64,000 nucleotides of DNA from the NCBI GenBank assembly GCA_049322915.1, contig JBMOPW010000026.1:160001-224000 (forward strand), given 5' to 3'. Source of the DNA: Candidatus Zhuqueibacterota bacterium. GTDB taxonomy: Bacteria; Zhuqueibacterota; Zhuqueibacteria; Thermofontimicrobiales; Thermofontimicrobiaceae. Position 1 is the stretch's first letter, and each line of letters begins with the position of its first letter. The notes under the pieces are model-generated. The model worked only from the letters and a program-made list of their open reading frames with translations, searched no databases and was not told the origin of the DNA. Shown here piece after piece: positions 9,891 to 28,206 of this stretch. Position numbers and translations under genes: made by a program.

Positions 9891-9934
9891 ACCGCTGATT
9901 GATGAGCGCATCCATCGATCAGCGGTTTTTTTTT
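9891..9934 (+). terminator. Rho-independent terminator
   Basis: ACCGCTGATTGATG/CATCGATCAGCGGT stem followed by a T-run. Confidence 0.85.
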
Positions 9935-9976: not shown

Positions 9977-10005
9977 TTGACATTAACTGTAGAATTCAAT
10001 ATTTT
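9977..10005 (+). promoter_or_regulatory. sigma70-type promoter of paralog 1
   Basis: TTGACA-17 nt-TATTTT. Confidence 0.6.
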
Positions 10006-10123: not shown

Positions 10124-13100
10124 TTGAGAGCTACGTTCTGTTTGAGAGTTTTAATTCTTTGTGGGTACTGTTTATTCGTGCAATTAAGTCTGCCTCTCCT
10201 TGCTTTTAGTCAGGATTTTGAAAGGCAAGCGACACGATCCGAATTATTAACGAAACGGCAGTTTCAGGAGGAACGGGTCGGCGGCGTTATCGATGTATCT
10301 GATCTGAAGATCGGATTTTTGAATAATGGGCGGTTTTGTCCGCCGGAGGAGATCATCCCGGAATTGCCCTCTGCGTTTTATGAGAAATACGGCTACCTGA
10401 GTAAGCTGGATCTTTGGGTGGGCATCCCGGATGGTCCCTGGGCACCGCAGGTGTGGGATGAATCTTCGCAGCGGTATATTTCTGCAGGACCCACAGTGTC
10501 GGGAACATTGTACGAATATTGGGTGACTGACACGGATTGGTCCACGATCAGTGGAACGCGCGGTGTGTTTTATACCGGTGAACTCCAGTATAGTGATCTG
10601 TATCGGCCGTCCAGTCTGTTCGATTTCCCGCTGGCAGCAATGAGTGAAGACGAGCGAACCTGGCCGAGGAATTCGTTCACCGGGTATCGTGAATGGCCAG
10701 GTCGCCGGAAGATCGATGTCCTGACCGGAGAGACGATTCCCGGGTCATTTCTGGGTGATCAGGACATCTTCCTCGCGTTCGATGATAAAACCCTGGCCGA
10801 TCAGATGGCGCCGACCTCGGTCATTGTTAGCAATAACGGCAGGCGATTCCAGCCGCAGAAAGGTTATCCCATCGGCGCAGAGGTGCTGGCTCAGGTGTTC
10901 AGCTACCAGTCCGGCTATCTTGCCAATACAGTATTTTTTGATCTGAAAATAATCAACACAAGCCAGTGGAATTACCATGATGTTTATCTGGGACTTTATT
11001 ATGAATCGGACAATCCGTCCTACGACCTGAATCGACCCGATTTGCTCACCACCCGCGTGCGGGAAAAAATGAGTTATATTAAAAATGATACGACCGATGT
11101 TGGGTCGGCGATGTTCCCGTTCAACATGGCCTATAGCTATGCCTATCGCGATTATTATGAATACAATGCGGGCTACTTGGGCGTTCAGTTGTTGAAAACT
11201 CCGATGGCCAGCGCTGATCAGATCGATAACGACGGGGACGGTTGGGTCGATGAGCCGGAGGGCGAGCAACTGGGACTCACCGGCTGGCATTATTTCGAGC
11301 CGAATGTCATGATGTACGCCGGAGAAAGAGAGCGGCTTCAATACCAGATATTGGCCGGCGATACCACCGGGTTCAGTGATTTGGTGCAACAACGACGGGT
11401 GTTTTTTTCCAGATTGGATGGCTCCTTCGACCCTCATTACGATACTTCGAGTTTAATAAAAAGCGGCTATTACCAGTACGGGGAGATACCCCATGTGTAT
11501 GCGCTTCTGAGCACTGGCCCGACAGATTGGGCCAGCGGCGATACGCTCAGTTTTGTCTTTGCGGTCTTGGTTGGCGAGAATCAGGAGCGGCTGGAGACGA
11601 GCGCGCAAATTGCCCGGCAAATCGTGGACTTCAATTATACTTATTCCAGCGCGCCGCTTCCGCCACAGGTAACCGCCGTAGCGCAGGATGGCAAGGTCAC
11701 GCTGTACTGGGACCGTTCTGCGGAATCAGCCGAGGATTTCATCACCGGCTATGCTGATTTCGAAGGTTATAAAATTTACCGAACCACCGTTGATCCGGCA
11801 GAAAATATGTGGGGTCAGGCTATTTACGACCATGATAACAACATTGTCAATTACATGCCGGTGGCGTCGTGCGACCTGGAAAACGGCATTCACGGCTACG
11901 AAAAAGTCTACCCGTTTCAAAAGCTGGGAGAAGACACAGGCCTGTTTCATTCCTGGACCGACACGACAGTGACCAACGGCGTAACCTACTGGTACAGCGT
12001 GTGCGCGTACGATCACGGCATTGTGGATGATGAGGATTTCAACCCAAAAAGTTTCCCGCCGTCGCCGCTCAACGAATGCGTCAAAGGGGCAGATCCAAAG
12101 CTGAACTCGAACCTGGTGCAGGTTGTGCCCGGCGTACAGGCGGTTGATTATGAAACGCCCCGGATTCAGTTTGAGGCATTGGCAGCGACTTCCGGCAATG
12201 GCCCCATTGAGGTGACGATTGTTGATCCGTTCAAAATTACCGGCCACGATTACACCATGACCTTTGAGGACACAACCTATGGTTACGCGGTCTACAACCT
12301 GTACGATGAAACAGTCGGTGAAATGAAGCTGGAAAAAGTGCAGCAGACCGGCGGCGAAGAAGGCGTTATTTGCGACGGACTGCAAATCCACGTTGAGCGT
12401 TACGATGACATGGAAGTGCTGAACGATAGAACGTTCTGGTACAATTACGAGACCGGTGAGCCGTCCAAATGCACATGGTCGATTTTCGGCGGGAAGCTGA
12501 CGTGGGATCCGTTCCCCTATGAATACGACATCATTTTCACCGGCGAAATGGACACAAGCGTTTTCATGAAGCGAACGGCGCCGTTTAAAATCTGGAACAC
12601 GGTGCTGGACAAACCGGCGCTGTGGGATATTTACTGGAATTATTCCGGAACCGACACCACCGATTCGCTGGTCAGCACCTGGTCCAGCGGCGACATGATT
12701 TATATCTGGGACCAATTCGACCAGGAGAATGAATTCACATTACGGGTGACGATTTCCGAGCGCTCGGTGTACACGTACCAGGGATTGATGAACATTCCGC
12801 CCAAAACCGGGGACGCGGTTCACATTGCGCTGAAGCGAATGTTCCGAACCGGCGATCAGTTCCGAATTTCCACCAAAGCCATGGAGAAAGCCGAAGCGCG
12901 AAAGAACCGCCTGAACGACATCAAAGTCGTGCCCAATCCCTACGTGGTGGGCGCCGACTGGGAGCTTGGCCGAAACGACTCACGCATCCAGTTCATCCAT
13001 TTGCCTTCGGAATGCACAATTCACATTTACACCCTGGCCGGCGATAAAGTGCGAACCCTGCATCACAACAATCCCAACACGGATTACGAATTCTGGGATT

Positions 13101-13204
13101 TGCTCAATTTCAGTAATTTGAAAGCGAGTTACGGCTTGTACGTTTACGTGGTGGAAACGCCGGATGGCAAGGCAACGACAGGTAAGTTTGTGATTTTGAG
13201 GTGA
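10124..13204 (+). CDS. Large secreted protein, paralog 1 of 4 (Ca-binding DxDxDG motif, FN3-like domain, T9SS-like C-terminal domain)
   Basis: Signal peptide; DNDGDGWVDE; VTLYWD..FEGYKIYR..NGVTYWYSV; C-terminal VVPNPY...IYTLAG...WDL...GKFVILR. Confidence 0.85.
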   Translation: MRATFCLRVLILCGYCLFVQLSLPLLAFSQDFERQATRSELLTKRQFQEERVGGVIDVSDLKIGFLNNGRFCPPEEIIPELPSAFYEKYGYLSKLDLWVGIPDGPWAPQVWDESSQRYISAGPTVSGTLYEYWVTDTDWSTISGTRGVFYTGELQYSDLYRPSSLFDFPLAAMSEDERTWPRNSFTGYREWPGRRKIDVLTGETIPGSFLGDQDIFLAFDDKTLADQMAPTSVIVSNNGRRFQPQKGYPIGAEVLAQVFSYQSGYLANTVFFDLKIINTSQWNYHDVYLGLYYESDNPSYDLNRPDLLTTRVREKMSYIKNDTTDVGSAMFPFNMAYSYAYRDYYEYNAGYLGVQLLKTPMASADQIDNDGDGWVDEPEGEQLGLTGWHYFEPNVMMYAGERERLQYQILAGDTTGFSDLVQQRRVFFSRLDGSFDPHYDTSSLIKSGYYQYGEIPHVYALLSTGPTDWASGDTLSFVFAVLVGENQERLETSAQIARQIVDFNYTYSSAPLPPQVTAVAQDGKVTLYWDRSAESAEDFITGYADFEGYKIYRTTVDPAENMWGQAIYDHDNNIVNYMPVASCDLENGIHGYEKVYPFQKLGEDTGLFHSWTDTTVTNGVTYWYSVCAYDHGIVDDEDFNPKSFPPSPLNECVKGADPKLNSNLVQVVPGVQAVDYETPRIQFEALAATSGNGPIEVTIVDPFKITGHDYTMTFEDTTYGYAVYNLYDETVGEMKLEKVQQTGGEEGVICDGLQIHVERYDDMEVLNDRTFWYNYETGEPSKCTWSIFGGKLTWDPFPYEYDIIFTGEMDTSVFMKRTAPFKIWNTVLDKPALWDIYWNYSGTDTTDSLVSTWSSGDMIYIWDQFDQENEFTLRVTISERSVYTYQGLMNIPPKTGDAVHIALKRMFRTGDQFRISTKAMEKAEARKNRLNDIKVVPNPYVVGADWELGRNDSRIQFIHLPSECTIHIYTLAGDKVRTLHHNNPNTDYEFWDLLNFSNLKASYGLYVYVVETPDGKATTGKFVILR

Positions 13205-13309
13205 ACGACATAGAACGCGGATTTCGCTGATGATCCTCCAAAAAATCGGCGGACGTTCCGCGCGGATAAATAAATTAAATTTTAAAATAAAATCCTCCAA
13301 AATAAAAGC

Positions 13310-16300
13310 GTGGGTGTAGTGAAAATAGTCAAGTCAAAACATATAGTCACGACGATACTAATTTATGTCCTGTTTTTTGATGGCGCTGGGATTGTTCTGC
13401 CATCACAGAGAAAGGGCTTATCCAAAATGAGCCAACAGCAGGAACTCATCGGCGGCGTGATCGATGTTAGCAGTTTAAAAAATAGTTTCTTTAACAACGG
13501 TCGATTCTGCCCACCGAGTGAATTCGTACCTGACCTTCCCAGCGCTCACAGAGGCAAGTTTGGTTATTTAAATGTACTTGATTTGTGGATCGGAATTCCA
13601 GATGGCCCTTGGGCACCCAAAGAATGGGATGCTGATTCACAAAAATATGTATCTGCAGGCCCAACTGTCTCAGGTACTGTATTTGGGGAAACCTTGAGAT
13701 TTCAAAACCATAGCAAGACGATAATACCGGGACATACTATTGGCCACGAATTCACCGGACCCTATATTGATAATACCGATTGGTCAACGATTTTTGCATC
13801 GCAAGGACAGCTTTATACTGACGAGCTTTTATTTAGTGAGGTTTATGGCCAATCCAGTTTTTTTGATTTTCTTTTAGCTCCTCATAGTGAGTATGACCGA
13901 TCATGGCCCAGGAATCCATATAGCGGCTTACAAGAATGGCCTGGCAGATGGAAAAAAAATCCCATAACCGGTGAATCGATGTCAGGTAATTTCCTTGGTG
14001 ACCAGACGATTTTTTTCTCGTTCGACGACAAAACATACGCAGATCGGTATTATCCGGAATCACCATTAATTTGGGGATCACATAAGATTTATCCCGAGAA
14101 AGGATATTCAATTCAGGCGGAGGTATTAGGGCAGGCAATTGGATTTCAAACTCCATTATTATCAAATATCATTTTTTTTGATTTGCAAATTATTAATACA
14201 TCTACCTGGGATTACAAGGATGTATATATCGGTCTTTATAATGTGTCTGACATACCCTGGTATTATCCTGATGATGCCGTCCCCAGATACGCGCTATTGA
14301 GAAATGAATATATAAAAAATGAGTTCGATGCAAGTCGAACCGAGGTAATTCCATACAATTTAAGTTATAGTTACAATTCAGAAAAGGACCCAACAGTCGA
14401 TTCTACTTATTTTGGTGTTCAATTTTTGAAAACACCATTGGCGATAGACGATCAAAAAGACAATGACGATGATGGGATCATTGATGAAGTCGGTGAACAA
14501 CTTGGTTTGACAGGATGGCATTTTATTGAACCGTGGATCCTTGAACATTACGGAAAACGGGAAAAAATACAATATAAAATAATGGCTGGTGATACCTCTG
14601 GATTAGGTTCTTTAATTGGGAGCCGCATATTTTTTAACAATGCGGACGGAACACTTAACGTAAATTTCGACTCGCCAGAGAGAATTAGAGATTTTTTTTA
14701 TTATGAATATTATGGTCGAGGTAAGTTGTGGTATGTATTTAATATAATGAGCTGCGGCCCTATCGATTGGGCAAGCGGAGATACACTTAATTTCGTTTTT
14801 GGTATTCTTTTCGCTGAAAATCTGGATAAATTGAAAGGCATAGCTGATTTGGCAAGGAAAGTTGTCGAGAGCGAATATAATACTGCAATGGGGCCACCAC
14901 CGCCCAAGGTCACTGCGGTGCCGCAAAATGGGAAGGTAACGCTTTATTGGGATAACTCTGTTGAAGATGCAACTCATAACCTTACAGGTTACTGGAGCTT
15001 CGAGGGGTATAAAATCTACCGTACTACTATCAATCCGGAATTTAATCAATGGGGCGAACCAATCAATGATTCTGACGGCACGCTTATTAATTTCGTTCCC
15101 ATAGCTCGCTGCGACATGAACAACGGTATAAACGGTTACGAGCAGGTGTACCCCTATCAAAAATATGGCGATGATACTGGTCTGTTCCATTCATGGACCG
15201 ATACCACCGTGACCAATGGCGTGACCTACTGGTACAGCGTCTGCTCCTACGATCATGGCGTTGTGGACAATCCACGTTTAAACCCGGGAAATTATCCCGC
15301 TGCTCCCATGGGTGAATGTAGAAAAGGAACCGATCCTGATGTGGATGTCAATTTGGTGAAAGTGGTGCCTGGTGTTCACGCCTCGGATTATGAGCTTCCC
15401 ACCGCTGAAGTCGAACAATTGGAGGAAACATCGGGCAACGGACTAATTACGCCCTATATCATCGATCCCTATCAAGTCACAGGCCACGATTATCTTATCA
15501 TGTTCGAAGACACGACGTTCGGTTATGCAGCCTACGATCTCTACGATGAGACCGACGGGAAAATGCTGTTTAAGAAAATCACCAGCACCAATGGCGAAGA
15601 AGGGCTGATTTTCGATGGCATTCAACTCTCCATTCAGCGATACGACGACATGGAAGTGCTGAACGAGCGAACCTTTTGGTTCAATTACGAAACAGGCGAA
15701 AACTCGGAATGCACGTGGACCATTCACGGCGGAAAACTGACCTGGGACCCATATCCATTCGAATACGATATTCGTTTCACCGATAAAATGGACACCAGTG
15801 CCTTTCTCAAGAAGACTGCGCCGTTCGAAATCTGGAACACCATTTTGAATCAAAAAGCGCTGTGGGATATTTACTGGAACTCTACGGGGACGGACACCAC
15901 AGATTCGCTGAAAAACACCTGGTCCAGCGGGGACATGATTTATATCTGGGATGAATTCAACGAGGAGAACAAATTCACGCTGCGGATCACCATCACCGAG
16001 CGGTCGATTTACACCTACCAGGGCCTGGTGAACAATCCGCCCCGGCCTGGCGATGCTGCCCACATCGCGCTGAAGCGGCCGTTCATCACAGGCGATCAGT
16101 TTCGCATCCGAACCAGCGCCTTGAAGAAAAAGCAGAACGGGCAGGCTGATTTGAACGACATCAGAGTCGTGCCCAATCCCTACGTGGTTGGCGCCGACTG
16201 GGAGCTTGGCCGAAACGACTCCCGAATTCAGTTCATCCATTTACCCTCGGAATGCTCGATTCACATTTATACCTTGGCCGGCGACAAAGTGCGAACCCTG

Positions 16301-16444
16301 CATCACAACAATCCCAACACGGATTACGAATTCTGGGATCTGCTCAATTTCAGCAATTTGAAGGCGAGTTATGGTTTGTATGTCTATGTGGTGGAAACGC
16401 CGGATGGCAAGGCGATGACCGGGAAGTTTGTGATTTTGAGATGA
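13310..16444 (+). CDS. Large secreted protein, paralog 2 of 4
   Basis: Colinear with paralog 1. The 5' two-thirds is AT-rich; the last ~1 kb is nearly identical to paralog 4. Start may be GTG 13319. Confidence 0.85.
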   Translation: MGVVKIVKSKHIVTTILIYVLFFDGAGIVLPSQRKGLSKMSQQQELIGGVIDVSSLKNSFFNNGRFCPPSEFVPDLPSAHRGKFGYLNVLDLWIGIPDGPWAPKEWDADSQKYVSAGPTVSGTVFGETLRFQNHSKTIIPGHTIGHEFTGPYIDNTDWSTIFASQGQLYTDELLFSEVYGQSSFFDFLLAPHSEYDRSWPRNPYSGLQEWPGRWKKNPITGESMSGNFLGDQTIFFSFDDKTYADRYYPESPLIWGSHKIYPEKGYSIQAEVLGQAIGFQTPLLSNIIFFDLQIINTSTWDYKDVYIGLYNVSDIPWYYPDDAVPRYALLRNEYIKNEFDASRTEVIPYNLSYSYNSEKDPTVDSTYFGVQFLKTPLAIDDQKDNDDDGIIDEVGEQLGLTGWHFIEPWILEHYGKREKIQYKIMAGDTSGLGSLIGSRIFFNNADGTLNVNFDSPERIRDFFYYEYYGRGKLWYVFNIMSCGPIDWASGDTLNFVFGILFAENLDKLKGIADLARKVVESEYNTAMGPPPPKVTAVPQNGKVTLYWDNSVEDATHNLTGYWSFEGYKIYRTTINPEFNQWGEPINDSDGTLINFVPIARCDMNNGINGYEQVYPYQKYGDDTGLFHSWTDTTVTNGVTYWYSVCSYDHGVVDNPRLNPGNYPAAPMGECRKGTDPDVDVNLVKVVPGVHASDYELPTAEVEQLEETSGNGLITPYIIDPYQVTGHDYLIMFEDTTFGYAAYDLYDETDGKMLFKKITSTNGEEGLIFDGIQLSIQRYDDMEVLNERTFWFNYETGENSECTWTIHGGKLTWDPYPFEYDIRFTDKMDTSAFLKKTAPFEIWNTILNQKALWDIYWNSTGTDTTDSLKNTWSSGDMIYIWDEFNEENKFTLRITITERSIYTYQGLVNNPPRPGDAAHIALKRPFITGDQFRIRTSALKKKQNGQADLNDIRVVPNPYVVGADWELGRNDSRIQFIHLPSECSIHIYTLAGDKVRTLHHNNPNTDYEFWDLLNFSNLKASYGLYVYVVETPDGKAMTGKFVILR

Positions 16445-16450
16445 AATGGT

Positions 16451-16485
16451 TCAGATATCGGATTGCGCATGGCAGATTTCGGAGT
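16451..16485 (+). repeat. Degenerate 7-nt tandem array (xCRGATx x5)
   Basis: tcagata tcggatt gcgcatg gcagatt tcggagt, 6 nt after the paralog 2 stop. Same unit as 24250-24291. Confidence 0.55.
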
Positions 16486-16700
16486 CTCGGTTCGACTAAC
16501 TGCATGATTTATTCAAGGATCAAACAAAAGGAAAACGAAGCTATAACCAAAAATCAACATTGGTGAATTCAATCGTAATATGTTCAAAAAATTGCTTGAT
16601 AATCTGTCAACAATGTTTTATATTTTTAGCGCTGAGACACAGGTCAATAAAAACAAGTAATCTAATCTGCTTTTCATATTAACATTTTGGGAGCATTGCA

Positions 16701-16913
16701 ATGGAATCCAGCTTTGCAGACGTTGTGGAAGAAATTAAAAAGATGTCCCATCACGATAAAATGGAATTGAAATTTCTATTAGAAAAATACCTGATCGAAG
16801 AACAAAGAGCGGGAATCTATAAAAATTATCTCGATTCGAAAAAAGAAGTCCATGACCTGAACGTTCAGTACTCATCCGATATAAATGAACTTAAGGATAA
16901 GTTAGAGCAATGA
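16701..16913 (+). CDS. Putative antitoxin
   Basis: 70-aa ORF overlapping (ATGA) the start of a RelE/YafQ-like toxin. Confidence 0.7.
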   Translation: MESSFADVVEEIKKMSHHDKMELKFLLEKYLIEEQRAGIYKNYLDSKKEVHDLNVQYSSDINELKDKLEQ

Positions 16914-17179
16914 TTGAGATTGCATTTAGTTCTTCCTTTAAAAGAGCTTATAAAAAGATGATTAAAGGGCAATCTTTGTTGGAACAAAAATTTTGAGAAC
17001 GGGTCGAACAGTTTCAGCGAAGCCCTTTCGAAAAAAACCTTAGAACACACAAGCTTTCGGGTAAACTAAAAGATTTGTGGAGTTTCAGCATTGAATATGA
17101 TGTGCGGGTTATTTTTTATTTTGCAGAAGAAGATAAAGCAATTTTTATTGATATTGGCACTCACGATGTTGTATATTGA
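16910..17179 (+). pseudogene. RelE/YafQ-like mRNA interferase toxin with an internal stop
   Basis: MIEIAFSSSFKRAYKK...EQKF*ERV...LRTHKLSGKLKDLWSFSIEYDVRVIF...DIGTHDVVY*. In-frame TGA at 16994-16996. Not in the ORF track. Confidence 0.85.
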
Positions 17180-17306
17180 TTTCTGAATGAGCAAAACTCA
17201 AATCCATTTTGCAAATAATTTTTCTTGGCGATGAAGATGTGGCTGCGTGACAGAACAAGATATATTTTTATCATATTACAAACATCAGATCGAAGGAGGT
17301 TTTGTA

Positions 17307-17510
17307 ATGGAGTCAGTGACAATATCACCTGAATTTCAAATCGTCATTCCGCGACGGGTTGGGGATTCCCTGAAATTGAAACCGGGGCAAAAGATCAGAG
17401 TCATTCAATTTGGCAAAAGGATAGAGCTAATCCCGGAAGTCGAAATATCTGAAATGCGAGGCTTTTTGAAAGGGATCGATACAAAAATCAGCCGGGAGGA
17501 GGAGCGATAA
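17307..17510 (+). CDS. AbrB/MazE/SpoVT-family antitoxin (orphan)
   Basis: MESVTISPEFQIVIP...LKLKPGQK...IELIP; AGGAGG ribosome-binding site at 17294-17299. Confidence 0.85.
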   Translation: MESVTISPEFQIVIPRRVGDSLKLKPGQKIRVIQFGKRIELIPEVEISEMRGFLKGIDTKISREEER

Positions 17511-17722
17511 TGAACAAGACAAAAAATATTCTGGATCAGGCAATGCGGCTTTCACCTGCTGATAAATTTTTAGTGATCGAAGCATTGCTGAACAGTATCG
17601 ATGAACCAAATAAAACCATTGATGAAATTTGGGCGGTCGAGGCAGAAAGCAGATTACAAGCCTACAAGCAGGGAAAATTAAGAACATTATCTTTTGAGGA
17701 AGTATTTGGCAAGGAAGATTAA
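17510..17722 (+). CDS. Addiction-module antitoxin (TIGR02574-like)
   Basis: LSPADK...LLNSID...IDEIWAVEAESRLQAY..G. Confidence 0.8.
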   Translation: MNKTKNILDQAMRLSPADKFLVIEALLNSIDEPNKTIDEIWAVEAESRLQAYKQGKLRTLSFEEVFGKED

Positions 17723-18018
17723 TGAATATTAAAATTTCTGAATTTGCCCAGAAGGAGCTCGAAGACGCTATATTCTTTTACGAATTACAACAGTCAGGCT
17801 TGGGAAATAAATTTAAAATCGAAGTTCGATCATCAATTCAAAGAATAGTGAAACATCCAAACGCCTGGCCAATTGAAAGTGGTGAAGTACGAAAGTGTTA
17901 CCTTTATAAATTTCCCTATAAAATACTGTATTCGATTCAGGAAAATAACGTAATTGTTTTAGCAATTGCTCACCAACACAGAAAACCTGGCTATTGGATC
18001 GAACCAGAGAATTATTAA
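17722..18018 (+). CDS. RelE/ParE-family toxin
   Basis: AQKELEDAIFFYE...GLG...KFPYKILY...LAIAHQHRKPGYW. Confidence 0.88.
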   Translation: MNIKISEFAQKELEDAIFFYELQQSGLGNKFKIEVRSSIQRIVKHPNAWPIESGEVRKCYLYKFPYKILYSIQENNVIVLAIAHQHRKPGYWIEPENY

Positions 18019-18092
18019 ATTTAGTAGGTGCACGAACGTGTAGTTTCTATTGAAATTTCAAAATTATTACCAGTTTAAATTTGGGATGTGCG

Positions 18093-21083
18093 GTGAAAAA
18101 TTTATTTCAACAAACAACTCCCCTCCTTATTTTGAGTGCCACACTCAGCTTTCTTCTTTCTGCGCAAGACGTATATTCATCAGATAATAAAAAACCGAGC
18201 CAACAGCAAACCCTCATCGGCGGCGTCATCGATGTTTCTGACTTGAAGATTGGATTTGTGAATAATGGTCGCTTTTGTGCGCCGAGGAATTATTTACCTG
18301 ATTTACCGAGTGCTCTCTATGACAGTTTAGGTTATTTAGCAAAATTGGATTTATGGGTGGGTGTTCCAAATGGTCCCTGGGCTCCGAAAATTTGGAATGC
18401 CGATTCACAGAAATATGTTTCTTTGGGACCAACTGTATCCGGAACTGTTTTCGATCCGCGTAATCAATATGTAACAGATTGGTCCAGTATTGAAGGCACA
18501 GAAGATATTATTTACACCAAAGACATTTTGTTTAGTGAACTATACGGCCCATCTGAACTCTTTGACTTTTTTATCGCTCCAACAAGTAACATTGAAAAAA
18601 CCTGGCCTATAAATTCGTATACAGGATTAAGAGAATGGCCAGGTCGCTGGAGAAAAAATCCTGTTACTGGCAAATTAGTAGAAGAAGTATTTTTAGGTGA
18701 TCAGGACGTGTACATCTCTTATGATGATAAACGTAATTTTGACGCAAGTAAAAACTATCCAATTGGCGCAGAGGTAATAGCGCAGGTTGTTGGTTTTAAG
18801 GAATCCTATATTTCAAACATGGTGATTTATGATTTACAAATTGTCAACACAAGTGAATGGAATTATCATGATGTTTATCTGGGAATTTACTCTGAGGCAG
18901 ACAATCCATTATACTGGTTGAATGCCAATCTGGCGAACTACAGGCGGTTGAAAACTGGCTATTTCAAGAATGAATATGATGTAAGTTCAGGATCCATTTT
19001 TCCCTATAATCTGAGCTATAGCCAAAATGATAGTCCAGGAATAATGCTGCTTGGAATTCAATTTTTAAAAACACCTTTGGCCGAAAACGACAACCTTGAC
19101 AATGATGAGGATGGAACAATCGATGAAGCAAATGAAGAACTGGGTCTAACAGGTTGGCATTATTTGCATCCCACTTCAGTGCTCTGGTCTCCACAAGCAA
19201 TTCAAGAACGAGCACAGTATCAAATTTTGGCTGGTGATACTACAGGCCTGGCATGGATGATTGATTCGACCTGTTTTTATCCAAATCAGAATGGTGTTCT
19301 CAATCCTGATTTCGATTCCCCTGAACAGATTGAACAACCTGATGATATGAGAAATATTCGAGGAACAGTTCAGGTGGCTTACAATCTTATGAGCTGCGGC
19401 CCAATCAATTGGCAGCGTGGCGACACACTCAATTTTGTCTTTGCTGTATTAGTCGCTGAAAATATAGAAAAATTAAAGGCAAGCGCCCGCATGGCTCATA
19501 AACTTGTCCACAATGACTATTACTATCCCAAAGGTCCACCTCCTCCAAAACTCAATGCTGTACCAAAAGATTCAAAGGTCACTTTATATTGGGATCGGTC
19601 CGCCGAAACCGCAAAAGATATGCTTACTGGTTATCAGAGTTTTGAAGGCTATAAAATCTATCGCACTACAACCGATCCGAGTAACAATGAGTGGGGTACA
19701 AAAAATTTAGATGATCTGGGGAATTTCATCAATTTTATTCCAATTGCCCGTTGTGATCTAACAAATGGAGTTAAGGGATATGAAACTGTATATCCGTATC
19801 AGTATTTAGGCGATGATTCTGGACTATTTCATTCCTGGACTGATACAAGCGTAACAAACGGCGTCACATACTGGTATAGTGTTTGCTCTTACGATAGAGG
19901 CATCTTGGAAAATGATGAGATAAATATTTACAATTTTCGGGCCTCCCCCATGCAGGAATGTCCCAGAGGAACCGATCCTGATTCCGATGCCAATTTAGTT
20001 AAAGTTGTACCTGGAATGCCATCGACAAATCACTGCGATCCGACCGTGCAAATTGAGCGACTTCCAGGAACATCAGGGACAGGATCAGTTGAAGCAATTT
20101 CTATCGATCCTTTTTCAATTACGGGGCATGATTATAATCTTGTATTTGACGACACAACTTACAGATTTGCAGTTTATAATCTTTATAATGAAACTGATAA
20201 TCGGTTGATATTTGAAAATGTAATTCAAACGAATGGAGAAGAAGGTATAACTTTTGATGGATTGCTTTTAACGGTCAAACGCTTTGATGAAATGCACGTC
20301 AGAAATGATGAAACATATTGGTATAAATTCGAAACTGGAGAACTCTCAGATTGTACATGGTTAATTTACGGGGAAGCGATATTAACCTATCCCTTTCCGT
20401 ATGAGTACGAAATAAGATTCAAAAATGTTTATGAAACAGGCGTAATAACCGGTAAAACAGGACCGTTTGAAATATGGAATACTCTATTAAATCGAAAATG
20501 TACATGGGATATTTTTTATGACTCGGAGACCGACTCCACTGAAAAATTGAAAAATCGGTGGTCAAGTGGTGATATGATTTATATCAGGGATGAACACGAA
20601 AATAAGTTTGTTTACACGGTACGTGTTTCAATAACCGAGTATACATTTGTGACAAATGAAGGAAATCGTAATACACCGCCTCATTCAGGAGATGTCGCTA
20701 AAATCCCAATGGACAGACCTTTTTTAAGCGGTGATCAATTCCGCATAAAAACAAATCCCTTACAAACAAGAGCAGCTTTCAAAAACGAGTTGGATCGAAT
20801 AAAGGTCGTTCCAAATCCCTACAATTTTCATGCAGAATGGGAGCTTGACCGAAACGACTCCCGTATCCAGTTCATCCATTTGCCTTCGGAATGCTCGATT
20901 CACATTTACACCCTGGCCGGCGACAAAGTGCGAACCCTGCATCACACCAATCCCAACACCGATTACGAATTCTGGGATTTGCTCAATTTCAGCAATTTGA
21001 AAGCGAGTTACGGGTTGTACGTGTATGTGGTGGATACGCCTGATGGCAAGGCAACGACCGGGAAGTTTGTGATTTTGAGGTGA
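18093..21083 (+). CDS. Large secreted protein, paralog 3 of 4
   Basis: Colinear paralog. AT-rich until ~20837, then near-identical to the other 3' ends. GTG 18093 chosen (ORF track start 18081). Confidence 0.85.
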   Translation: MKNLFQQTTPLLILSATLSFLLSAQDVYSSDNKKPSQQQTLIGGVIDVSDLKIGFVNNGRFCAPRNYLPDLPSALYDSLGYLAKLDLWVGVPNGPWAPKIWNADSQKYVSLGPTVSGTVFDPRNQYVTDWSSIEGTEDIIYTKDILFSELYGPSELFDFFIAPTSNIEKTWPINSYTGLREWPGRWRKNPVTGKLVEEVFLGDQDVYISYDDKRNFDASKNYPIGAEVIAQVVGFKESYISNMVIYDLQIVNTSEWNYHDVYLGIYSEADNPLYWLNANLANYRRLKTGYFKNEYDVSSGSIFPYNLSYSQNDSPGIMLLGIQFLKTPLAENDNLDNDEDGTIDEANEELGLTGWHYLHPTSVLWSPQAIQERAQYQILAGDTTGLAWMIDSTCFYPNQNGVLNPDFDSPEQIEQPDDMRNIRGTVQVAYNLMSCGPINWQRGDTLNFVFAVLVAENIEKLKASARMAHKLVHNDYYYPKGPPPPKLNAVPKDSKVTLYWDRSAETAKDMLTGYQSFEGYKIYRTTTDPSNNEWGTKNLDDLGNFINFIPIARCDLTNGVKGYETVYPYQYLGDDSGLFHSWTDTSVTNGVTYWYSVCSYDRGILENDEINIYNFRASPMQECPRGTDPDSDANLVKVVPGMPSTNHCDPTVQIERLPGTSGTGSVEAISIDPFSITGHDYNLVFDDTTYRFAVYNLYNETDNRLIFENVIQTNGEEGITFDGLLLTVKRFDEMHVRNDETYWYKFETGELSDCTWLIYGEAILTYPFPYEYEIRFKNVYETGVITGKTGPFEIWNTLLNRKCTWDIFYDSETDSTEKLKNRWSSGDMIYIRDEHENKFVYTVRVSITEYTFVTNEGNRNTPPHSGDVAKIPMDRPFLSGDQFRIKTNPLQTRAAFKNELDRIKVVPNPYNFHAEWELDRNDSRIQFIHLPSECSIHIYTLAGDKVRTLHHTNPNTDYEFWDLLNFSNLKASYGLYVYVVDTPDGKATTGKFVILR

Positions 21084-21124
21084 GTTCATCGACGCGAGAA
21101 CAATTTACGAGTGGATTTTTTAAC

Positions 21125-21153
21125 TTGACAGTTTAACTAAAATATGTTAAATT
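21125..21153 (+). promoter_or_regulatory. sigma70-type promoter of paralog 4
   Basis: TTGACA-17 nt-TAAATT with an extended -10 TG. Implies the true start is ATG 21182. Confidence 0.6.
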
Positions 21154-21181
21154 GAAATATCCAACTATTTCTGGTGATGAA

Positions 21182-24100
21182 ATGAACCACCTCAGAATTA
21201 TAAAATCTTGCGTGGCCTTTCCTGTCATTTGCCTCTTATTCTTCTGCTTTAAAACAAGCAACCTGCATTCTCAAAGTCTCTCGAAGGAAAAAATAAAATC
21301 GCCAATGTTAAAAAAAGAAAGAACCAGGGAACTGCTCATCGGCGGAGTCATTAACAAATCGAATTTAAAAATCGGCTTTTTAAACAATGGCAGGTTTTGC
21401 GCTCCGGAAGAATTTTTACCTGATTTGCCAGGCGCGTTATTTGGCGACTATGGTTATTTAGGCAGACTCGATTTATGGATAGGTGTTCCGGATGGCCCAT
21501 GGGCGTCCGAAGTCTGGGATCCTCAATCTCAGACGTATATAACGATGGGACCGTCAGTGTCAGGTACTATCTATGAGCCATTGCCCACCGATACGGACTG
21601 GTCCACAATCAATGCCACAAGTGGAGCGCTCTATACCCCGGATGTGCTTTACAGTGATATTTATAAGCCTTCAGAATTATTTGATTTTATTCTTGCTCCT
21701 GCAAATGAATTGAAACAGACCTGGCCAAGAAACACACTGACAGGATTGAGAGAGTGGCCCGGCAAATGGAAAAAGGATCCTTTGACTGGAAAACCAATGG
21801 AGGGAGAATTTTTAGGAGATCAACAGATATTTTTATCCTTTGATGATAAAACTTATGCAGATCAACTTGTTCCGGAAGAAGTAGCTTACGGCGGGTTTCC
21901 ACCACAAAGGGGATATTCAATTGGCGCAGAAGTGCTGGCGAATGTGATTGGTTTTCAGGAAGCCTATATTTCGAAGATGGCGATTTTTGATTTGCAAATT
22001 ATCAATACCAGCCAGTGGGATTATCACGACGTTTATCTCGGAATTTACTACGAATCTGACAATCCCTGGTATTGGCTGCGTGAAGGACGGCCCCGCTATT
22101 ACGGTCTGAAAACCGGATATATAAAGAACGAATACAATCCAAAAACAGATGAAGTTATCCTGTATAATTTAAGCTACAATTATAATGTTGAAGGGTATGC
22201 TGACGATGATCCGAATTGTTTCGGTGTGCAACTTTTAAAAACGCCAGCAGCAATGAATGATCAATTCGACAATGATGGCGATGGAATTATCGATGAGCCG
22301 GATGGGGAAGAATTGGGACTCACTGGGTGGCATTTTTTCCCGTTTTATGGAATTTATGATTACGGGAACAGAGAGAAATTGCAATATCAAATATTAAAGG
22401 GTGACACAACCGGGTTATCACGGTTCAATTTAATCGATAACAATTGTTTTTATAAAGATGCAGATGGAAATCTCGATCCCAATTTTGATTCTCCTGATGG
22501 AATAAAATACTGGCGGTTCGGTGAGATTTGGTTGATTTATAATGTGCTGTCCTGTGGCCCTCTCACGTGGCACAGCAGCGATACTCTTAATTTTGTCTTT
22601 GGAATCTTATTAGCCGATGATTTTGAAAAGTTAAAGGGAAGCGCCCAGATAGCGAGGAAAATAGTTCAAAGCGACTATCGTCGTTCAGAAGGGCCATCAC
22701 CGCCAAATGTTACGGCAGTTCCTCAAAATGGGAAAGTGACATTATACTGGGATCGCTCTGCTGAAACATCCGAAGATTTTATTACCGGTTATCAGGACTT
22801 TGAAGGATATAAAATTTACCGTACAACTTCAGATCCGATAAATAATGAATGGGGGGAACGAATAATAGACCACCAGGGCAAGCAGATAAATTTTATGCCT
22901 GTTGCAAGTTGTGATCTTGACAATAAAATTTCAGGATATGAACCAGTTTATCCATTTCAATATCTTGGCGATGATACCGGGCTTTTTCACACATGGACTG
23001 ATTCGAGTGTCACCAATGGAGTGACTTACTGGTATAGCGTCTGTTCTTACGATCATGGCATAGTTGATGATGAGAATTTAAATCCATCTCATTTTCCGCC
23101 ATCCCCGCTAAAAGAATGCCCTAAAGGAACTGATCCTGATAACTCACAAAATTTAGTGAAAGTTATTCCCGGTGTCCAGGCGTACGATCATGAGGTTGCT
23201 CACGCGGAATTAGAAACGTTGTCTGATGTTTCGGGTAACGGGCCAATTACTCCTTACATCATCGATCCCTATCAGGTCACAGGCCACGATTATCTCATCA
23301 TGTTCGAAGACACCACGTTCGGTTACGCGGTCTACAATCTCTACGATGAAACCGATGGAACCATGCTGTTCGAAAAAGTGGCCAGCACGAATGGCGAGGA
23401 AGGGCTGATCTTCGACGGCATTCAACTCTCCATTCAGCGCTATGATGATATGGATGTTTTGAACGAGAAAACATTTTGGTTCAAATATGAAACCGGCGAA
23501 TTATCGAACTGTACCTGGACGATTCTAGGCGGCAAATTAACATGGGATCCCTATCCCTACGAATACGATATTCGATTCACCGATAAAATGGACACCAGTA
23601 TTTTTCTCAAGAAGACCGCGCCGTTCGAAATCTGGAACACTATTTTGAATCAAAAAGCGCTGTGGGATATTTATTTTAATTACGCCGGCACCGACACCAC
23701 AGATTCGCTGAAGAACACCTGGTCCAGCGGGGACATGATTTACATCTGGGACGAATTCAACGAGGAGAATAAATTCACGCTGCGGATCACCATCACCGAG
23801 CGGTCGATTTATACATACCAGGGCCTGGTGAACAATCCACCCCAACCAGGCGACGCCGCGCACATCGCGCTGAAGCGGCCGTTTATTACAGGCGATCAGT
23901 TTCGCATCCGAACCAGCGCCTTGAAGAAAAAACAGATCGGGCAGGCTGACTTGAGCGACATCAAAGTCGTGCCCAACCCCTACGTGGTGGGCGCCGACTG
24001 GGAGCTTGGTAAGGACGACTCCCGCATCCAGTTCATCCATTTGCCGTCGGAATGCTCGATTCACATTTACACCCTGGCCGGCGACAAAGTGCGAACCCTG

Positions 24101-24244
24101 CATCACACCAATCCCAATACGGATTACGAATTCTGGGACTTGCTCAATTTCAGCAATTTGAAGGCGAGTTATGGTTTGTATGTCTATGTGGTGGAGACGC
24201 CGGATGGCAAGGCGATGACCGGCAAGTTTGTGATTTTGAGATGA
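21182..24244 (+). CDS. Large secreted protein, paralog 4 of 4
   Basis: Colinear paralog with signal peptide and the same GKFVILR terminus. Confidence 0.85.
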   Translation: MNHLRIIKSCVAFPVICLLFFCFKTSNLHSQSLSKEKIKSPMLKKERTRELLIGGVINKSNLKIGFLNNGRFCAPEEFLPDLPGALFGDYGYLGRLDLWIGVPDGPWASEVWDPQSQTYITMGPSVSGTIYEPLPTDTDWSTINATSGALYTPDVLYSDIYKPSELFDFILAPANELKQTWPRNTLTGLREWPGKWKKDPLTGKPMEGEFLGDQQIFLSFDDKTYADQLVPEEVAYGGFPPQRGYSIGAEVLANVIGFQEAYISKMAIFDLQIINTSQWDYHDVYLGIYYESDNPWYWLREGRPRYYGLKTGYIKNEYNPKTDEVILYNLSYNYNVEGYADDDPNCFGVQLLKTPAAMNDQFDNDGDGIIDEPDGEELGLTGWHFFPFYGIYDYGNREKLQYQILKGDTTGLSRFNLIDNNCFYKDADGNLDPNFDSPDGIKYWRFGEIWLIYNVLSCGPLTWHSSDTLNFVFGILLADDFEKLKGSAQIARKIVQSDYRRSEGPSPPNVTAVPQNGKVTLYWDRSAETSEDFITGYQDFEGYKIYRTTSDPINNEWGERIIDHQGKQINFMPVASCDLDNKISGYEPVYPFQYLGDDTGLFHTWTDSSVTNGVTYWYSVCSYDHGIVDDENLNPSHFPPSPLKECPKGTDPDNSQNLVKVIPGVQAYDHEVAHAELETLSDVSGNGPITPYIIDPYQVTGHDYLIMFEDTTFGYAVYNLYDETDGTMLFEKVASTNGEEGLIFDGIQLSIQRYDDMDVLNEKTFWFKYETGELSNCTWTILGGKLTWDPYPYEYDIRFTDKMDTSIFLKKTAPFEIWNTILNQKALWDIYFNYAGTDTTDSLKNTWSSGDMIYIWDEFNEENKFTLRITITERSIYTYQGLVNNPPQPGDAAHIALKRPFITGDQFRIRTSALKKKQIGQADLSDIKVVPNPYVVGADWELGKDDSRIQFIHLPSECSIHIYTLAGDKVRTLHHTNPNTDYEFWDLLNFSNLKASYGLYVYVVETPDGKAMTGKFVILR

Positions 24245-24249
24245 ACGAG

Positions 24250-24291
24250 TCAGATGGCGGATGCCAGATGGCAGATTACGGATACAAGATA
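24250..24291 (+). repeat. 7-nt tandem array (CCAGATG-like x6), left arm of the four-helix-bundle cassette
   Basis: tcagatg gcggatg ccagatg gcagatt acggata caagata. Confidence 0.7.
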
Positions 24292-24359
24292 AAAAATTTA
24301 TTAGCAAAAATTGTGTTGCTATTTAGCTGATTTTTTTTAAATTTTGAAATGGGGAAAAC

Positions 24360-24740
24360 GTGAATAAAAATGTTGGTTTCAAAGATTTGGAAGTTTATAA
24401 ATTAGCAAAGCAACTGGCAGTTGAAATTCATAAAATGACACTTTCGCTGCCGAAGTTCGAACTATTTGAAGAAGGAAGTCAAGTCAGGCGTTCATCGAAA
24501 TCTGTTGTAGCAAACATTGTTGAGGGATTCGGGAGAAGGCGTTATAAAAATGAATTTCTAAAACACATTACAATCGCCCTTTCAGAATGCGATGAAACCC
24601 AGGTTCACCTGGAACTTTTATATGAGACTGGTTCTTTAAAAGATGAAGAGATGTATCAGAAATTAAAGGAAGAAACAAATAAATTAGCCCGAATGTTAAA
24701 CACTTTTTTCCATTCAATCTTAAAACAACACATCAGCTAA
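24360..24740 (+). CDS. Four-helix-bundle protein (23S rRNA IVS protein / TIGR02436-like)
   Basis: FKDLEVYKLA...LPKFELFEEGSQVRRSSKSVVANIVEGFGRR. Confidence 0.92.
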   Translation: MNKNVGFKDLEVYKLAKQLAVEIHKMTLSLPKFELFEEGSQVRRSSKSVVANIVEGFGRRRYKNEFLKHITIALSECDETQVHLELLYETGSLKDEEMYQKLKEETNKLARMLNTFFHSILKQHIS

Positions 24741-24754
24741 AAATAATAAATACT

Positions 24755-24810
24755 TATCTGGCATCTGTTGTCAGAAATCCGGAATCTGACATCCGGCATC
24801 TGGCATCAAG
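24755..24810 (-). repeat. 7-nt tandem array (CATCTGG-like x8), right arm, inverted relative to 24250-24291
   Basis: tatctgg catctgt tgtcaga aatccgg aatctga catccgg catctgg catcaag. Confidence 0.7.
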
Positions 24811-24826
24811 ATTTAGGAGAAAATTG

Positions 24827-25615
24827 ATGAAGCTTCATCAACAAATCTTTACTTTATTATTTTTAATTGTCGCCATGTTATTCTGTACAGAGAAAATACC
24901 GGAAGGGCCGGAGCGGACGGAGATTCTCGATGTGAGATTATTCCTTGAAGATGGCAGGGCCGAATTTGCCCAGGAGAATAACTGGGAGAACCGTTTCAAG
25001 CTCCCGCCGCAAAAGATGACGCAGGATCAATATGAAGCGCTGGCGCAATGGCAGGTCCCGTTCGGCTTGTGGGTACACAATGATTTTGATGAAGCCATCG
25101 ACGGAAAAAAATGGATCAAGATCGCGGTGAATTTGTGGTCAGCGGATGAATCGGATAACTGGACGGCGCGCCTTGTATATGCGGACACGACGTCCACGCG
25201 GAATATGACCATCCCCCCGGGGGATTCCATCACGATTTACACCGGGGATAAACTGGCCTGGAATCAACGCAACGATGCGGGTAAAAGCATACACATGACT
25301 GATACGTATACACCCATCTGGGTGGAATGCACGATTTTTGATTCATTGTTCAAATCCCCTGACACCACAATTTTCTGGCGCCATTGCGACACAACCATGC
25401 TGGCGCCGGTGGATACTGTCGTCGCGTTCGATGCCCCGAAAATTGTGAAAGCGCAGGCTGAGGTGCAGCTATTCCAAAATTACCACATCGTTCAATCCAA
25501 TATTGTTGAATTCACTATCAACTACTATTTTCCTTCGGAAGGATTTAATAAGAAATTCTGGTGCCGCGAGGGGGCGGTGCTGAACGGCGACCCGTCCTGT
25601 CCGTTTGGGAAATAG
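24827..25615 (+). CDS. Putative lipoprotein, hypothetical
   Basis: Hydrophobic leader ending AMLF-C, AGGAG ribosome-binding site, and four further Cys in the C-terminal half. Confidence 0.7.
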   Translation: MKLHQQIFTLLFLIVAMLFCTEKIPEGPERTEILDVRLFLEDGRAEFAQENNWENRFKLPPQKMTQDQYEALAQWQVPFGLWVHNDFDEAIDGKKWIKIAVNLWSADESDNWTARLVYADTTSTRNMTIPPGDSITIYTGDKLAWNQRNDAGKSIHMTDTYTPIWVECTIFDSLFKSPDTTIFWRHCDTTMLAPVDTVVAFDAPKIVKAQAEVQLFQNYHIVQSNIVEFTINYYFPSEGFNKKFWCREGAVLNGDPSCPFGK

Positions 25616-25683
25616 GTCACTATCGATGTGAAAATGAGATGATGGATTCCTGAAACAGATGACTTACCAACCGAAGAAAGAAC

Positions 25684-28206
25684 ATGATCAAGAAAATATT
25701 ATTTTTAATTTTTGCGCTGTCCATTATGGTTCAATCCATTAGTTACGCCGGGACAACTGGCTTGTTAAAAGGCAAGGTAGTCGATAAAAAAACTGGGCAG
25801 CCGCTCATCAGTGTGAATGTCATTTTAACCGGCACCAGGTACGGCGCTGCTACCGACGCCGATGGTAAATTTGTGGTTTACAACATTCCCGCTGGCGTGT
25901 ACCAGGTGAAAGCCACCATGATAGGCTACCTGCCCTACATCATCGAAAATGTCCGCATTATCATGGATTTGAAAACAGAGGTCGACATTGAATTGACTGA
26001 AGTCGCACTTGATTGGGGAAGTGAAGTGGTGGTCACTGCGGAGAGGCCGTTGATTCAGAAAGATATCACCGGTTCCACTCATTCCGTTGGATCGCGAAAA
26101 ATAGACGAGTTGCCGGTTGATTCCTACAAAGAGGTCGTGGCGTTGCAGCCGGGCGTCACCTCGGATTTGCACATTCGCGGTGGCCGAACCACGGAAGTGC
26201 TTTATCTCGTTGATGGACTCCCCATTCAGGAGAGCATGGAAGGGGGGGCCGGCTCGGAAATCCCACAGGCGTCGGTGTCGGAAATGACCATCCAGACCGG
26301 CGGATTCAACGCAGAATACGGGAATGCCATGTCCGGCATCATTAATATTGTGACCAAGTCCGGCGGATCGTCCCACGAATTCTGGACGCGAATTGTGGAT
26401 GACCATATCGGCATCGAAAAGAGCAACAAGCGCAGCGAATGGGAATTGCTCATGTCCGGGCCGGTGTATCGCGATAAAATCGGCTATTTTCTATCGTCAA
26501 ATATTATCGTTTCGGATACGCGCTGGTGGCAGGATCTGCAGAAATACTACGATTCGCCGATGGAAAAAAATATCAACTTCATGGGCAAACTGGATTTCGA
26601 CGTGACAGACAATATCAAGCTGGTCACCCAGGCCATTTATTCGGATTGGGACATTAAAGATTATGAGTATCGCTGGCGTTACAATCTGGATGGACTTCCG
26701 CCAAAGTCCAAGCAGTCGCTGCGGTTGAGCGCGACATTCACGCACACGCTTTCACCGCGCGTATTTTACACGCTGAATTTCAGTCGTTACCAGGTGCATC
26801 ACACGCTGCAAATGGGGAGCAAGAATGCGGTGGAATCCCTGGCGCCGTTTCAGTACGAGTTACCCTGGTTTTATTTTGTCTTTTCCGGCAATCGGCTGTG
26901 GTGGCAGGACGCCACAGAAATCAGTTATCTTGCCAAAGGCAGTTTTATCGCGCAATATCATCCCATCTCTCAACTGAAAGCCGGGTTTGAATTTCAATAC
27001 TATGATCTGGAAAACGATCTCGTCAAATACGAACCGCAGAAATCGTTCTGGGGCAAGCCGCTGCTGGATGCGGATTTGCTGAACTTCAGCAGCTACTACC
27101 ATTATCGGCCCTACCAGGGCGCATTTTATATTCAAAATAAAGTGGACAACGACATCGTGGTGATGAACCTGGGCGTGCGCTACGAGTTTCTCGATCCGCG
27201 CGCGCAACGCCCTGTGGTGGAATGGATTCCGGTTTCCAACGAGGATTACGAGCAGGAGATACAATCCTGGGCTCCGGCGACGATCAAGTCGCAATGGAGC
27301 CCCCGCATTGGTTTCTCTTTTCCAGTGACGGAGAACGATCATTTTTTCATCAACTACGGCTTCTTCTTTCAGATTCCCATGTTCGACTACATGTTCACCG
27401 GTCTCAACTTCGATTTGAAAAAAGGCATCAAGGCGCTGTATGGCAATCCGGATCTGAAGCCGGAACGCACCCGCGCCATCGAGCTGAGCTACAAACGGAC
27501 ATTCTGGGATAGCTGGCTTCTCTCGTTCACCTATTTCGACAAAGATATTGCCGGGCTGGTGGACACCAAGACATTTCTGGCGTCCGACAGCAAGGCCGAG
27601 GACGATGGTTTCTCTCAGTTCATCAATCTCGCCGGTGGACGGTCAAGCGGATTTGAGCTGATGGTCGAGAAGAAGTATGGCAATTATTTTTCCGGCAAAC
27701 TCAGCTATACCCACATGAACGCCAAAGGATTGAGCGGCAGCATCGACCAGGGGCTGAATTATTTTGTCTGGGGATTTGCTGTTCCCAATGAGGAATTTTA
27801 TTTGAGCTGGGATCAGCGTCAGACATTTGTCAGCGAGATATTTGCCGGCGTGCCGAACAAGATGGGGATCAATGTGCTGTGGCGATTTAACTCGCCGCGG
27901 CCGTACACCTATTATCCCTCGCGCAGCGGCTACGTGGCCGACGAATCCATTGAAATGAAGCCGAACAACGCCCGCATGAAGAACATGTCGTACGTCGATA
28001 TTAAAATTTTTAAAACATGGCAACTCACTCAGAAACTTTCGACCATGCTGTACCTGGACGTGCGGAACCTGATGGATACCTACAATGTGCTATGGATTGC
28101 ATCGGACGGACGAATCGGCGGTGAGCTGAGCGATCCCAGCGCCTGGGATATTGGCCGACGCGTGAACCTGGGATTGAAAATATCCTTCGAAGCTGGCCGC
28201 TATTGA
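25684..28206 (+). CDS. TonB-dependent receptor with N-terminal carboxypeptidase-regulatory-like domain
   Basis: GTTG..KGKV; plug LQPGV..HIRGGR..TGGFNAEYGNAMSGIINIVTK; SPRIGFSFP; GNPDLKPERT. Confidence 0.93.
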   Translation: MIKKILFLIFALSIMVQSISYAGTTGLLKGKVVDKKTGQPLISVNVILTGTRYGAATDADGKFVVYNIPAGVYQVKATMIGYLPYIIENVRIIMDLKTEVDIELTEVALDWGSEVVVTAERPLIQKDITGSTHSVGSRKIDELPVDSYKEVVALQPGVTSDLHIRGGRTTEVLYLVDGLPIQESMEGGAGSEIPQASVSEMTIQTGGFNAEYGNAMSGIINIVTKSGGSSHEFWTRIVDDHIGIEKSNKRSEWELLMSGPVYRDKIGYFLSSNIIVSDTRWWQDLQKYYDSPMEKNINFMGKLDFDVTDNIKLVTQAIYSDWDIKDYEYRWRYNLDGLPPKSKQSLRLSATFTHTLSPRVFYTLNFSRYQVHHTLQMGSKNAVESLAPFQYELPWFYFVFSGNRLWWQDATEISYLAKGSFIAQYHPISQLKAGFEFQYYDLENDLVKYEPQKSFWGKPLLDADLLNFSSYYHYRPYQGAFYIQNKVDNDIVVMNLGVRYEFLDPRAQRPVVEWIPVSNEDYEQEIQSWAPATIKSQWSPRIGFSFPVTENDHFFINYGFFFQIPMFDYMFTGLNFDLKKGIKALYGNPDLKPERTRAIELSYKRTFWDSWLLSFTYFDKDIAGLVDTKTFLASDSKAEDDGFSQFINLAGGRSSGFELMVEKKYGNYFSGKLSYTHMNAKGLSGSIDQGLNYFVWGFAVPNEEFYLSWDQRQTFVSEIFAGVPNKMGINVLWRFNSPRPYTYYPSRSGYVADESIEMKPNNARMKNMSYVDIKIFKTWQLTQKLSTMLYLDVRNLMDTYNVLWIASDGRIGGELSDPSAWDIGRRVNLGLKISFEAGRY

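Follow-up and report, generated by a model that had tools for sequence, protein, structure and literature searches.

The window analysed here is a stretch of 64,000 nucleotides (nt) from contig JBMOPW010000026.1 of a Candidatus Zhuqueibacterota bacterium, and contains an array of four large genes, designated W1 to W4, followed by genes for a lipoprotein and a TonB-dependent receptor. As judged from sequence comparison, the N-terminal heads and C-terminal tails of the encoded proteins have separate histories, and the heads of W2, W3 and W4 appear to come from other bacteria and to have been joined to a shared tail. The genetics of the array are well supported and unusual, and its function is unproven. 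The best reading, which on balance we consider probable by a modest measure, is that these are exchangeable surface capture proteins serving one importer.

All four genes are intact, full length and co-oriented, share 55–69% pairwise identity and have no match in Pfam. A preliminary description, made from the sequence alone, had recognised four paralogues of about 1000 amino acids (aa), with a lipoprotein and a TonB-dependent receptor downstream, and both observations held (Table 1). Its array of four genes on one strand also stands, except that they are not contiguous: 1.6 kb of toxin-antitoxin-type genes separate W2 from W3, and a gene for a four-helix bundle sits between W4 and the lipoprotein gene. 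The latter gene is likely to be a passenger, because a same-genus genome has another set of small genes at this position. Not covered in that account are the tail for type IX secretion, the mosaicism of heads and tails and the PorV-like barrel that goes with the family, all of which are described below.

At four-fold degenerate sites, the fraction differing among W1–W4 is 0.59–0.81 within aa 61–690, which is saturated, and 0.14–0.31 in the last 95 codons; W2 and W4 have a longer tail in common. The G+C content at third codon positions (GC3) is 0.32–0.39 in the heads of W2–W4, compared to a genome mean of 0.59, and steps up from 0.36 to 0.63 at codon 599 in W2, from 0.32 to 0.68 at codon 919 in W3 and from 0.38 to 0.67 at codon 701 in W4. 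The four-fold sites repeat this pattern. W3 is AT-rich in its head, FN3-like and middle domains, and only its C-terminal domain (CTD) is host-like. W1 has a host-like codon composition along the whole gene and is likely to be the resident copy. A step as strong as that in W3 (a threshold set post hoc) was found in 9 of the 775 long genes of the genome, three of them being W2–W4, and in none of the 20 other paralogues, which showed three weak steps, two of them downward. A GC3 step is also present in 7 of 11 relatives of the same cassette type, as against 0 of 6 control orthologues.

Phylogenetic trees agree with this pattern. Heads cluster by orthologue with support of 100, while at locus L001, which is one and the same stretch as G005/L040, the tails of both genes cluster together with support of 90. 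A gene pair in another genome (G003:C54) is 89% identical in DNA from nt 1210 onward, with divergent heads. A groundwater sequencing run from a different study contained W3, with 60 differences over 2703 nt, as well as the W4 head, with 71 over 2192 nt, and here the W4 head runs into a W2-like tail at nt 23248, the position of the GC3 step. Other contigs in this run match the heads in patches only, and may stem from other organisms. Assembly chimerism of the array was rejected, because single source contigs cross each GC3 step. The source contigs break within the repeated tails, and the order of genes in the array rests on the genome assembly. The lower depth over W2–W4 in run X1 and the missing cover of the W2 head in run X2 were not used as evidence.

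Two T9SS-like (type IX secretion system) cargo genes elsewhere (G000:C20:295978-299760 and G000:C14:862453-865851) also have an AT-richer 5′ part and a host-like tail (GC3 0.49 to 0.77 and 0.24 to 0.66 respectively), and head exchange may be wider than the family of the array. In one relative the large gene is frameshifted near the head/tail boundary (L082:6403-9404), by either sequencing error or decay.

The variation between the four proteins is concentrated in loops of the head. An alignment of the four shows 27 gap runs within W4 aa 61–512, which is the head, and one elsewhere. The preliminary description named five variable places in the N-terminal domain, and these were found as it gave them, quoted sequences included, together with two further variable segments, V3b (W4 aa 341–356) and V4b (aa 421–433). 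In 20 other homologues the five named segments have a pair identity of 0.31, compared to 0.57 ± 0.07 for random head segments (p = 0.0004; the window proteins and the W1 orthologue were excluded, four partial or distant matches were dropped, and related sequences are not independent). Loop lengths across homologues are 9–33 aa for V1, 6–30 for V2 and 5–20 for V3. The segments had been described as rich in Tyr, Trp and Arg; they are enriched in Tyr (0.105 vs. 0.06) and Arg (0.073 vs. 0.03) but not in Trp (0.032 vs. 0.028).

The same description regarded the loops as hypervariable and antibody-like, and proposed an analysis of dN/dS (the ratio of nonsynonymous to synonymous substitution rates), which was run here per loop set on two orthologue pairs. 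The five loops of W4 and its orthologue share 94% identity and have no gaps, with a dN/dS of 0.05 at a dS of 0.54. No template copy of any loop was found in the genome, and its two reverse transcriptases are both on contigs other than that of the array. Neither a site-specific recombinase among the scanned open reading frames (ORFs) of the locus nor a truncated silent copy among the array genes was found. Loops that vary widely in length and sequence across homologues are what active antibody-like diversification by a diversity-generating retroelement or shufflon would produce, but loops nearly unchanged between orthologues are not, and this explanation is largely refuted and scarcely credible. 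Hypervariability in the sense of ongoing diversification is likewise not supported. The loops are seemingly under purifying selection between orthologues, and are best described as old, fixed alleles. Given that they are conserved and have no template copy, they would be constrained alleles exchanged as whole heads rather than hypermutating complementarity-determining regions, and head diversity would arise through whole-head exchange. The array lacks the unrelated toxin tips and cognate immunity genes of a polymorphic toxin system: the heads are mutually homologous and no small gene follows W1 or W3.

A structure model of W4 was built from an alignment of 78 sequences, a model from four sequences having been set aside (predicted local distance difference test, pLDDT, 28.6). 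The retained model has a pLDDT of 90.7 and a predicted template modelling (TM) score of 0.81, and is nearly all β. Its head and linker helix match the N-terminal β-supersandwich of glycoside hydrolase (GH) families GH15, GH94 and GH116 (Z 16.5–18.1, root mean square deviation 3.1–4.8, identity 5–11%), the tail, an Ig-like CTD, matches that of PorZ (Z 13.3, root mean square deviation 2.0 over 94 residues), and for the middle domain the match is FlgL (Z 11.1). Profile matches to the tails of PorZ and PorU (5m11, 6za2) had E values of 0.009 and 0.025. The head is thus predicted to be a non-catalytic GH94-type β-supersandwich, and the tail a PorZ-like type IX secretion tail. The (α/α)6 catalytic domain is absent, β domains following the linker helix instead, and the model contains no catalytic barrel of any known enzyme. 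The lowest-pLDDT blocks of the head (77–84) coincide with V2, V3, V3b, V5 and the stretch right after V4b, as is expected for surface loops. Foldseek with the whole model gave only multi-domain matches of low TM score, with PorZ first; a search of the Atlas with the head gave only unnamed clusters, and a sequence search of the PDB with the four proteins gave no match. Other clusters of T9SS cargo contain proteins with the head fold too.

By hydropathy, W1–W4 have peaks of 2.35–2.87 in the first 35 aa, marginal for W3, which may mark signal peptides. The genome encodes SprA and two PorU proteins above the family cut-offs. A search for GldM found nothing in the genome, and the control genomes were silent as well. 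The two PorU-like sortases above the cut-off are in tandem (G000:C7:386485-394032). The preliminary description held that the proteins are not SusD homologues, and this is borne out: W1–W4 match no Pfam family, the model is nearly all β, and PF07980 (SusD) was not found in the genome, although a positive control matched. The array receptor scores 61 bits against the SusC/RagA-type model TIGR04056, for which the cut-off is 368.

A profile search with W1–W4 found 24 family members in the genome. A TonB receptor is nearby for 19 of the 20 other than W1–W4, and a PorV-like barrel gene is directly behind 18 of them. In metagenomes, 80 loci were collected, 25 of which were too short to count; a receptor was present in 52 and a barrel in 42 of the 55 informative loci. 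These counts support the linkage to TonB receptors that the preliminary description proposed to survey. The family is large and unnamed, with 6217 representatives at 50% identity, and forms a gene triad of TonB receptor, big partner and PorV-like barrel. The closest named homologues are labelled candidate division KSB1, and other records are titled 'uncultured Cytophagia'. No description of the family, the triad or the array was found in literature searches on the family and its host group, which had subscription papers largely outside their reach. PorV, T9SS and KSB1 go unmentioned in the main text of bioRxiv 10.64898/2026.09.21.753266.

All six relatives examined for it retain the nearest paralogous triad (L009:1427-8814, in G000:C14); its head is conserved, a GC3 step is absent, and it is likely to be a housekeeping importer. 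A divergent subtype has small genes, one of them thioredoxin-like (PF00578), before or between head genes (L033:10848-11996, L037:12542-13443), and β-propeller and CTD proteins within the cassette. At three loci (L071:9014-9394, L072:11454-11846, L036:6490-6888), ORFs of 126–132 aa with signal-like starts lie directly upstream of head genes; two were scanned and had no Pfam match, and none was seen in the window. It is possible that they encode cognate ligands.

The window locus uses the protein family and gene types of the usual triad, but differs from it in having tandem, mosaic head genes, an extra lipoprotein and an altered gene order, and in lacking its own barrel. The new element at the locus is the mosaic array. 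Among 167 genomes of the phylum, 15 encode the lipoprotein, and a search of the Atlas with it gave no usable match. It is a marker of a cassette subtype: of 17 loci examined, an 840-aa-type receptor is adjacent at 16 and the big protein at 14, and those without one lie at contig ends. Of the 17, 8 have a barrel in the cassette, 5 lack one and 4 are unclear. The cognate barrel gene is absent from the window cluster, and appears to be lacking in the genus, in that the genome and same-genus G005 hold only the C14-triad barrel of this clade, which is 55–56% identical to the cassette barrel; three other genomes hold two or three barrels of the clade. Three PorV/PorQ-like barrel genes (479, 307 and 326 aa) are present on the minus strand of the window at 43519-47243, behind genes for a FlgD-Ig/BNR protein and BlaR1-TonB_C, and are not the best matches to the cassette barrel. 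Tandem heads number four in the window, two in G005 and two in G003:C54, and relatives carry different head sets. In one genome (G013) only a 165-aa tail is left of the big gene, and the receptor is broken into four.

We propose that W1–W4 are variants of a single capture protein displayed on the surface, which have a tail in common but each bear a loop-decorated head of their own. They would be exported via the SprA translocon, and the uncleaved tail would be retained on a PorV-like barrel, as PorZ is by PorQ. Because the cassette's own barrel gene is missing in the genus, the nearest paralogous barrel, on contig C14, would be borrowed, which is plausible. The Tyr/Arg-rich loops would bind different carriers or polymers, and the catch would be handed to the single conserved TonB-dependent importer encoded just downstream, which would import a more constant cargo. 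In the same four genomes the heads are 51% identical and the receptor 75%, compared to 76% for both head and receptor of a control triad; heads that vary above an importer that does not are suggestive of targets that differ and a cargo that is shared. New heads would come from AT-rich donors and become established through homologous recombination within the conserved 3′ portion of the genes, a process that would homogenise the tails too, and incoming heads may bring spacer DNA such as the toxin-antitoxin genes. A bolder version, in which antibody-like variable heads from a horizontally shared library are taken up by recombination on a constant, type IX-anchored stalk, and the one conserved importer and its lipoprotein adaptor use them to strip cargo from the differing carriers of neighbours, is possible but in our view rather doubtful. 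No Rfam match, riboswitches included, was found in the window and four loci, and Fur-box scores against a consensus were within chance level. Neither regulatory elements of these two kinds nor any carbohydrate-active neighbour hints at a ligand for the heads.

Several observations weigh against the proposal of capture proteins. The dN/dS values come from two orthologue pairs, and in the second, that of W1, the loops are 65% identical with a dN/dS of 0.16, compared to 0.07 for the framework. Four of the 11 cassette-type relatives have no significant GC3 step, and GC-biased gene conversion could have contributed to the GC-rich tails. TIGR04183 scores the array CTDs at 15–17 bits, below its cut-off of 23. 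In the W4 model V3, V3b, V4 and V5 seem to lie at one end of the sandwich, while V2 seems to leave or start at the opposite end (loop ends were assigned by strand alternation, by which V1 could not be placed), and therefore a single loop face is not assured. No carbohydrate-active genes flank the locus, and a glycan role therefore has no support from its neighbours. Finally, a conserved receptor with swapped heads is equally expected from allele exchange driven by phage or predators.

On that last explanation, all heads serve the receptor in the same way, and are exchanged because, as exposed surface, they are what a phage or predator recognises, much as with serotypes. Exchanged AT-rich alleles with conserved flanks, and varying heads next to a constant receptor, are consistent with it, and the Bacteroides SusC shufflons have been proposed to subvert phage (10.1101/521070). 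However, all four genes are intact and two have promoter-like sites of their own, and four alleles displayed together would add receptors rather than hide them. Together with the purifying selection on loops and the lack of a recombinase among the scanned ORFs, this makes evasion unlikely, if still deserving of attention.

The long multi-domain β architecture with its FN3-like stalk in the model, the Tyr/Arg-rich loops and the occurrence of the head fold in other T9SS cargo would also suit adhesins or cell-recognition proteins for biofilm partners, with the receptor sensing or importing material released on contact, or merely co-regulated. The nearly constant position of the family beside a receptor, and the decay of both big gene and receptor in G013, argue otherwise, and we regard this as decidedly improbable. 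Less probable again, to the point of being hard to defend, is an enzymatic head, an epimerase or hydrolase that would act on substrate at the mouth of the receptor and owe its varying specificity to the loops. The head does have mutarotase-like matches (Z about 12); His343 (model numbering) is found in 76 of 78 aligned sequences and Asp181/Asp395 in 73 of 76, and the N-terminal domain of GH94 enzymes helps form the pocket (PMC5309861). Against this, the catalytic domain is missing from the model, and His343 drops to 101 of 135 in the wider family. Galactose mutarotase-like enzymes have a catalytic His/His/Glu set; the aligned heads show one conserved His, and their two central strands contain neither a conserved His nor a conserved Glu.

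Of known systems, the array resembles SusD/RagB or TbpB co-receptors in how it would work, and PorZ in how it would be anchored. SusC/SusD and RagA/RagB have a surface binding partner encoded beside a TonB-dependent transporter (10.1101/755678), ragAB has four alleles (PMC11817032), and loop differences among its variants are proposed to alter preference (10.1101/755678). The array likewise has partner genes beside a receptor, in allelic variants. However, SusD/RagB is a tetratricopeptide-repeat lipoprotein, while the array partner is a 1000-aa all-β protein with a T9SS-type tail, present as several heads per receptor with exchange limited to the head. In TbpA/TbpB and BtuB/BtuG, as proposed for the array, the transporter is conserved, and its surface co-receptor, which would strip cargo from carriers, is more variable. 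TbpB and BtuG are lipoproteins of other folds, unlike the array, which is a tandem set with exchanged heads and a separate lipoprotein. PorZ, which PorQ holds, and PorU, which PorV holds, both retain their tails (PMC5562754, PMC10202324). As in these pairs, and in type B cargo with PorP/SprF barrels, the family combines a PorZ-fold CTD with a PorV-like barrel, normally adjacent; it is tied to a nutrient importer rather than to the attachment complex, and in the array four cargos with near-identical tails have no adjacent barrel. The Bacteroides SusC shufflon BT1032–BT1053 has a tyrosine recombinase, truncated copies and a 7-bp site (10.1101/521070). It too reassorts parts of nutrient-uptake genes by recombination via a shared segment, whereas the array copies are intact and co-oriented, with junctions that differ per gene and no recombinase seen. 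With GH15, GH94, GH116 and galactose mutarotase the head shares its fold and linker helix, but no catalytic barrel follows. The array is therefore not a member of the SusCD systems, the GH enzyme families, retroelement targets or shufflons.

Coordinates are collected in Table 1. In the spacer, the YafQ-like toxin gene (16910-17179) has its in-frame TGA at 16994-16996, among small toxin-antitoxin-type genes, and run X2 has shorter versions of this spacer. A 65-nt element similar to repetitive extragenic palindromes follows W1 (13204-13267), and recurs at 81–91% identity on at least six other contigs and at 33492-33550. Further downstream, at 39829-43169, are genes for Phe-tRNA synthetase, of which the 519-aa α subunit has an N-terminal winged helix reminiscent of the archaeal type.

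Table 1. Positions of the array genes and associated features in the window.
Feature	Position	Strand	Details
Terminator-like hairpin, strong	9889..9928	+	Closes upstream SLT/LysM gene; 16-pair stem and T run; consensus match only
σ70-like promoter candidate before W1	9977..10005	+	TTGACA-17-TATTTT; consensus match only
W1	10124..13204	+	1026-aa ORF; head 10265-11647, CTD 12917-13201
W2	13310..16444	+	1044-aa ORF; AT-rich head 13436-14887; GC3 step near 15104
AT-rich spacer	16445..18080	+	GC 0.35; small toxin-antitoxin-type genes: 70-aa ORF, YafQ-like gene with in-frame stop, AbrB/MazE-like gene, addiction antitoxin, ParE
W3	18081..21083	+	1000-aa ORF; GC3 step near 20835
σ70-like promoter candidate before W4	21125..21153	+	TTGACA-17-TAAATT with TG; consensus match only
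W4	21152..24244	+	1030-aa ORF; probable start ATG 21182; head 21326-22687, FN3-like 22688-23176, middle 23189-23926, CTD 23957-24241; GC3 step near 23252
W4 variable segments	21566..22537	+	V1 21566-21592, V2 21851-21907, V3 22061-22111, V3b 22172-22219, V4 22331-22375, V4b 22412-22450, V5 22487-22537
Four-helix-bundle gene	24360..24740	+	PF05635; AT-rich
Lipoprotein, family not known	24824..25615	+	263 aa; conserved Cys following hydrophobic stretch
TonB-dependent receptor	25684..28206	+	840 aa; PF00593 and Plug

SusD-less relatives of Bacteroidota may use the family to equip their TonB importers, and the locus is a natural experiment for it, with four heads, one receptor and near-identical tails. 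The array localises specificity to a domain of 450 residues and seven loops, and therefore ligand screens and comparisons of heads can test the whole model. It shows how repertoires of surface receptors would grow by exchange of heads and not by mutation. If the shared library of heads proves true, the recognition system would be new, as would its natural binding scaffold.

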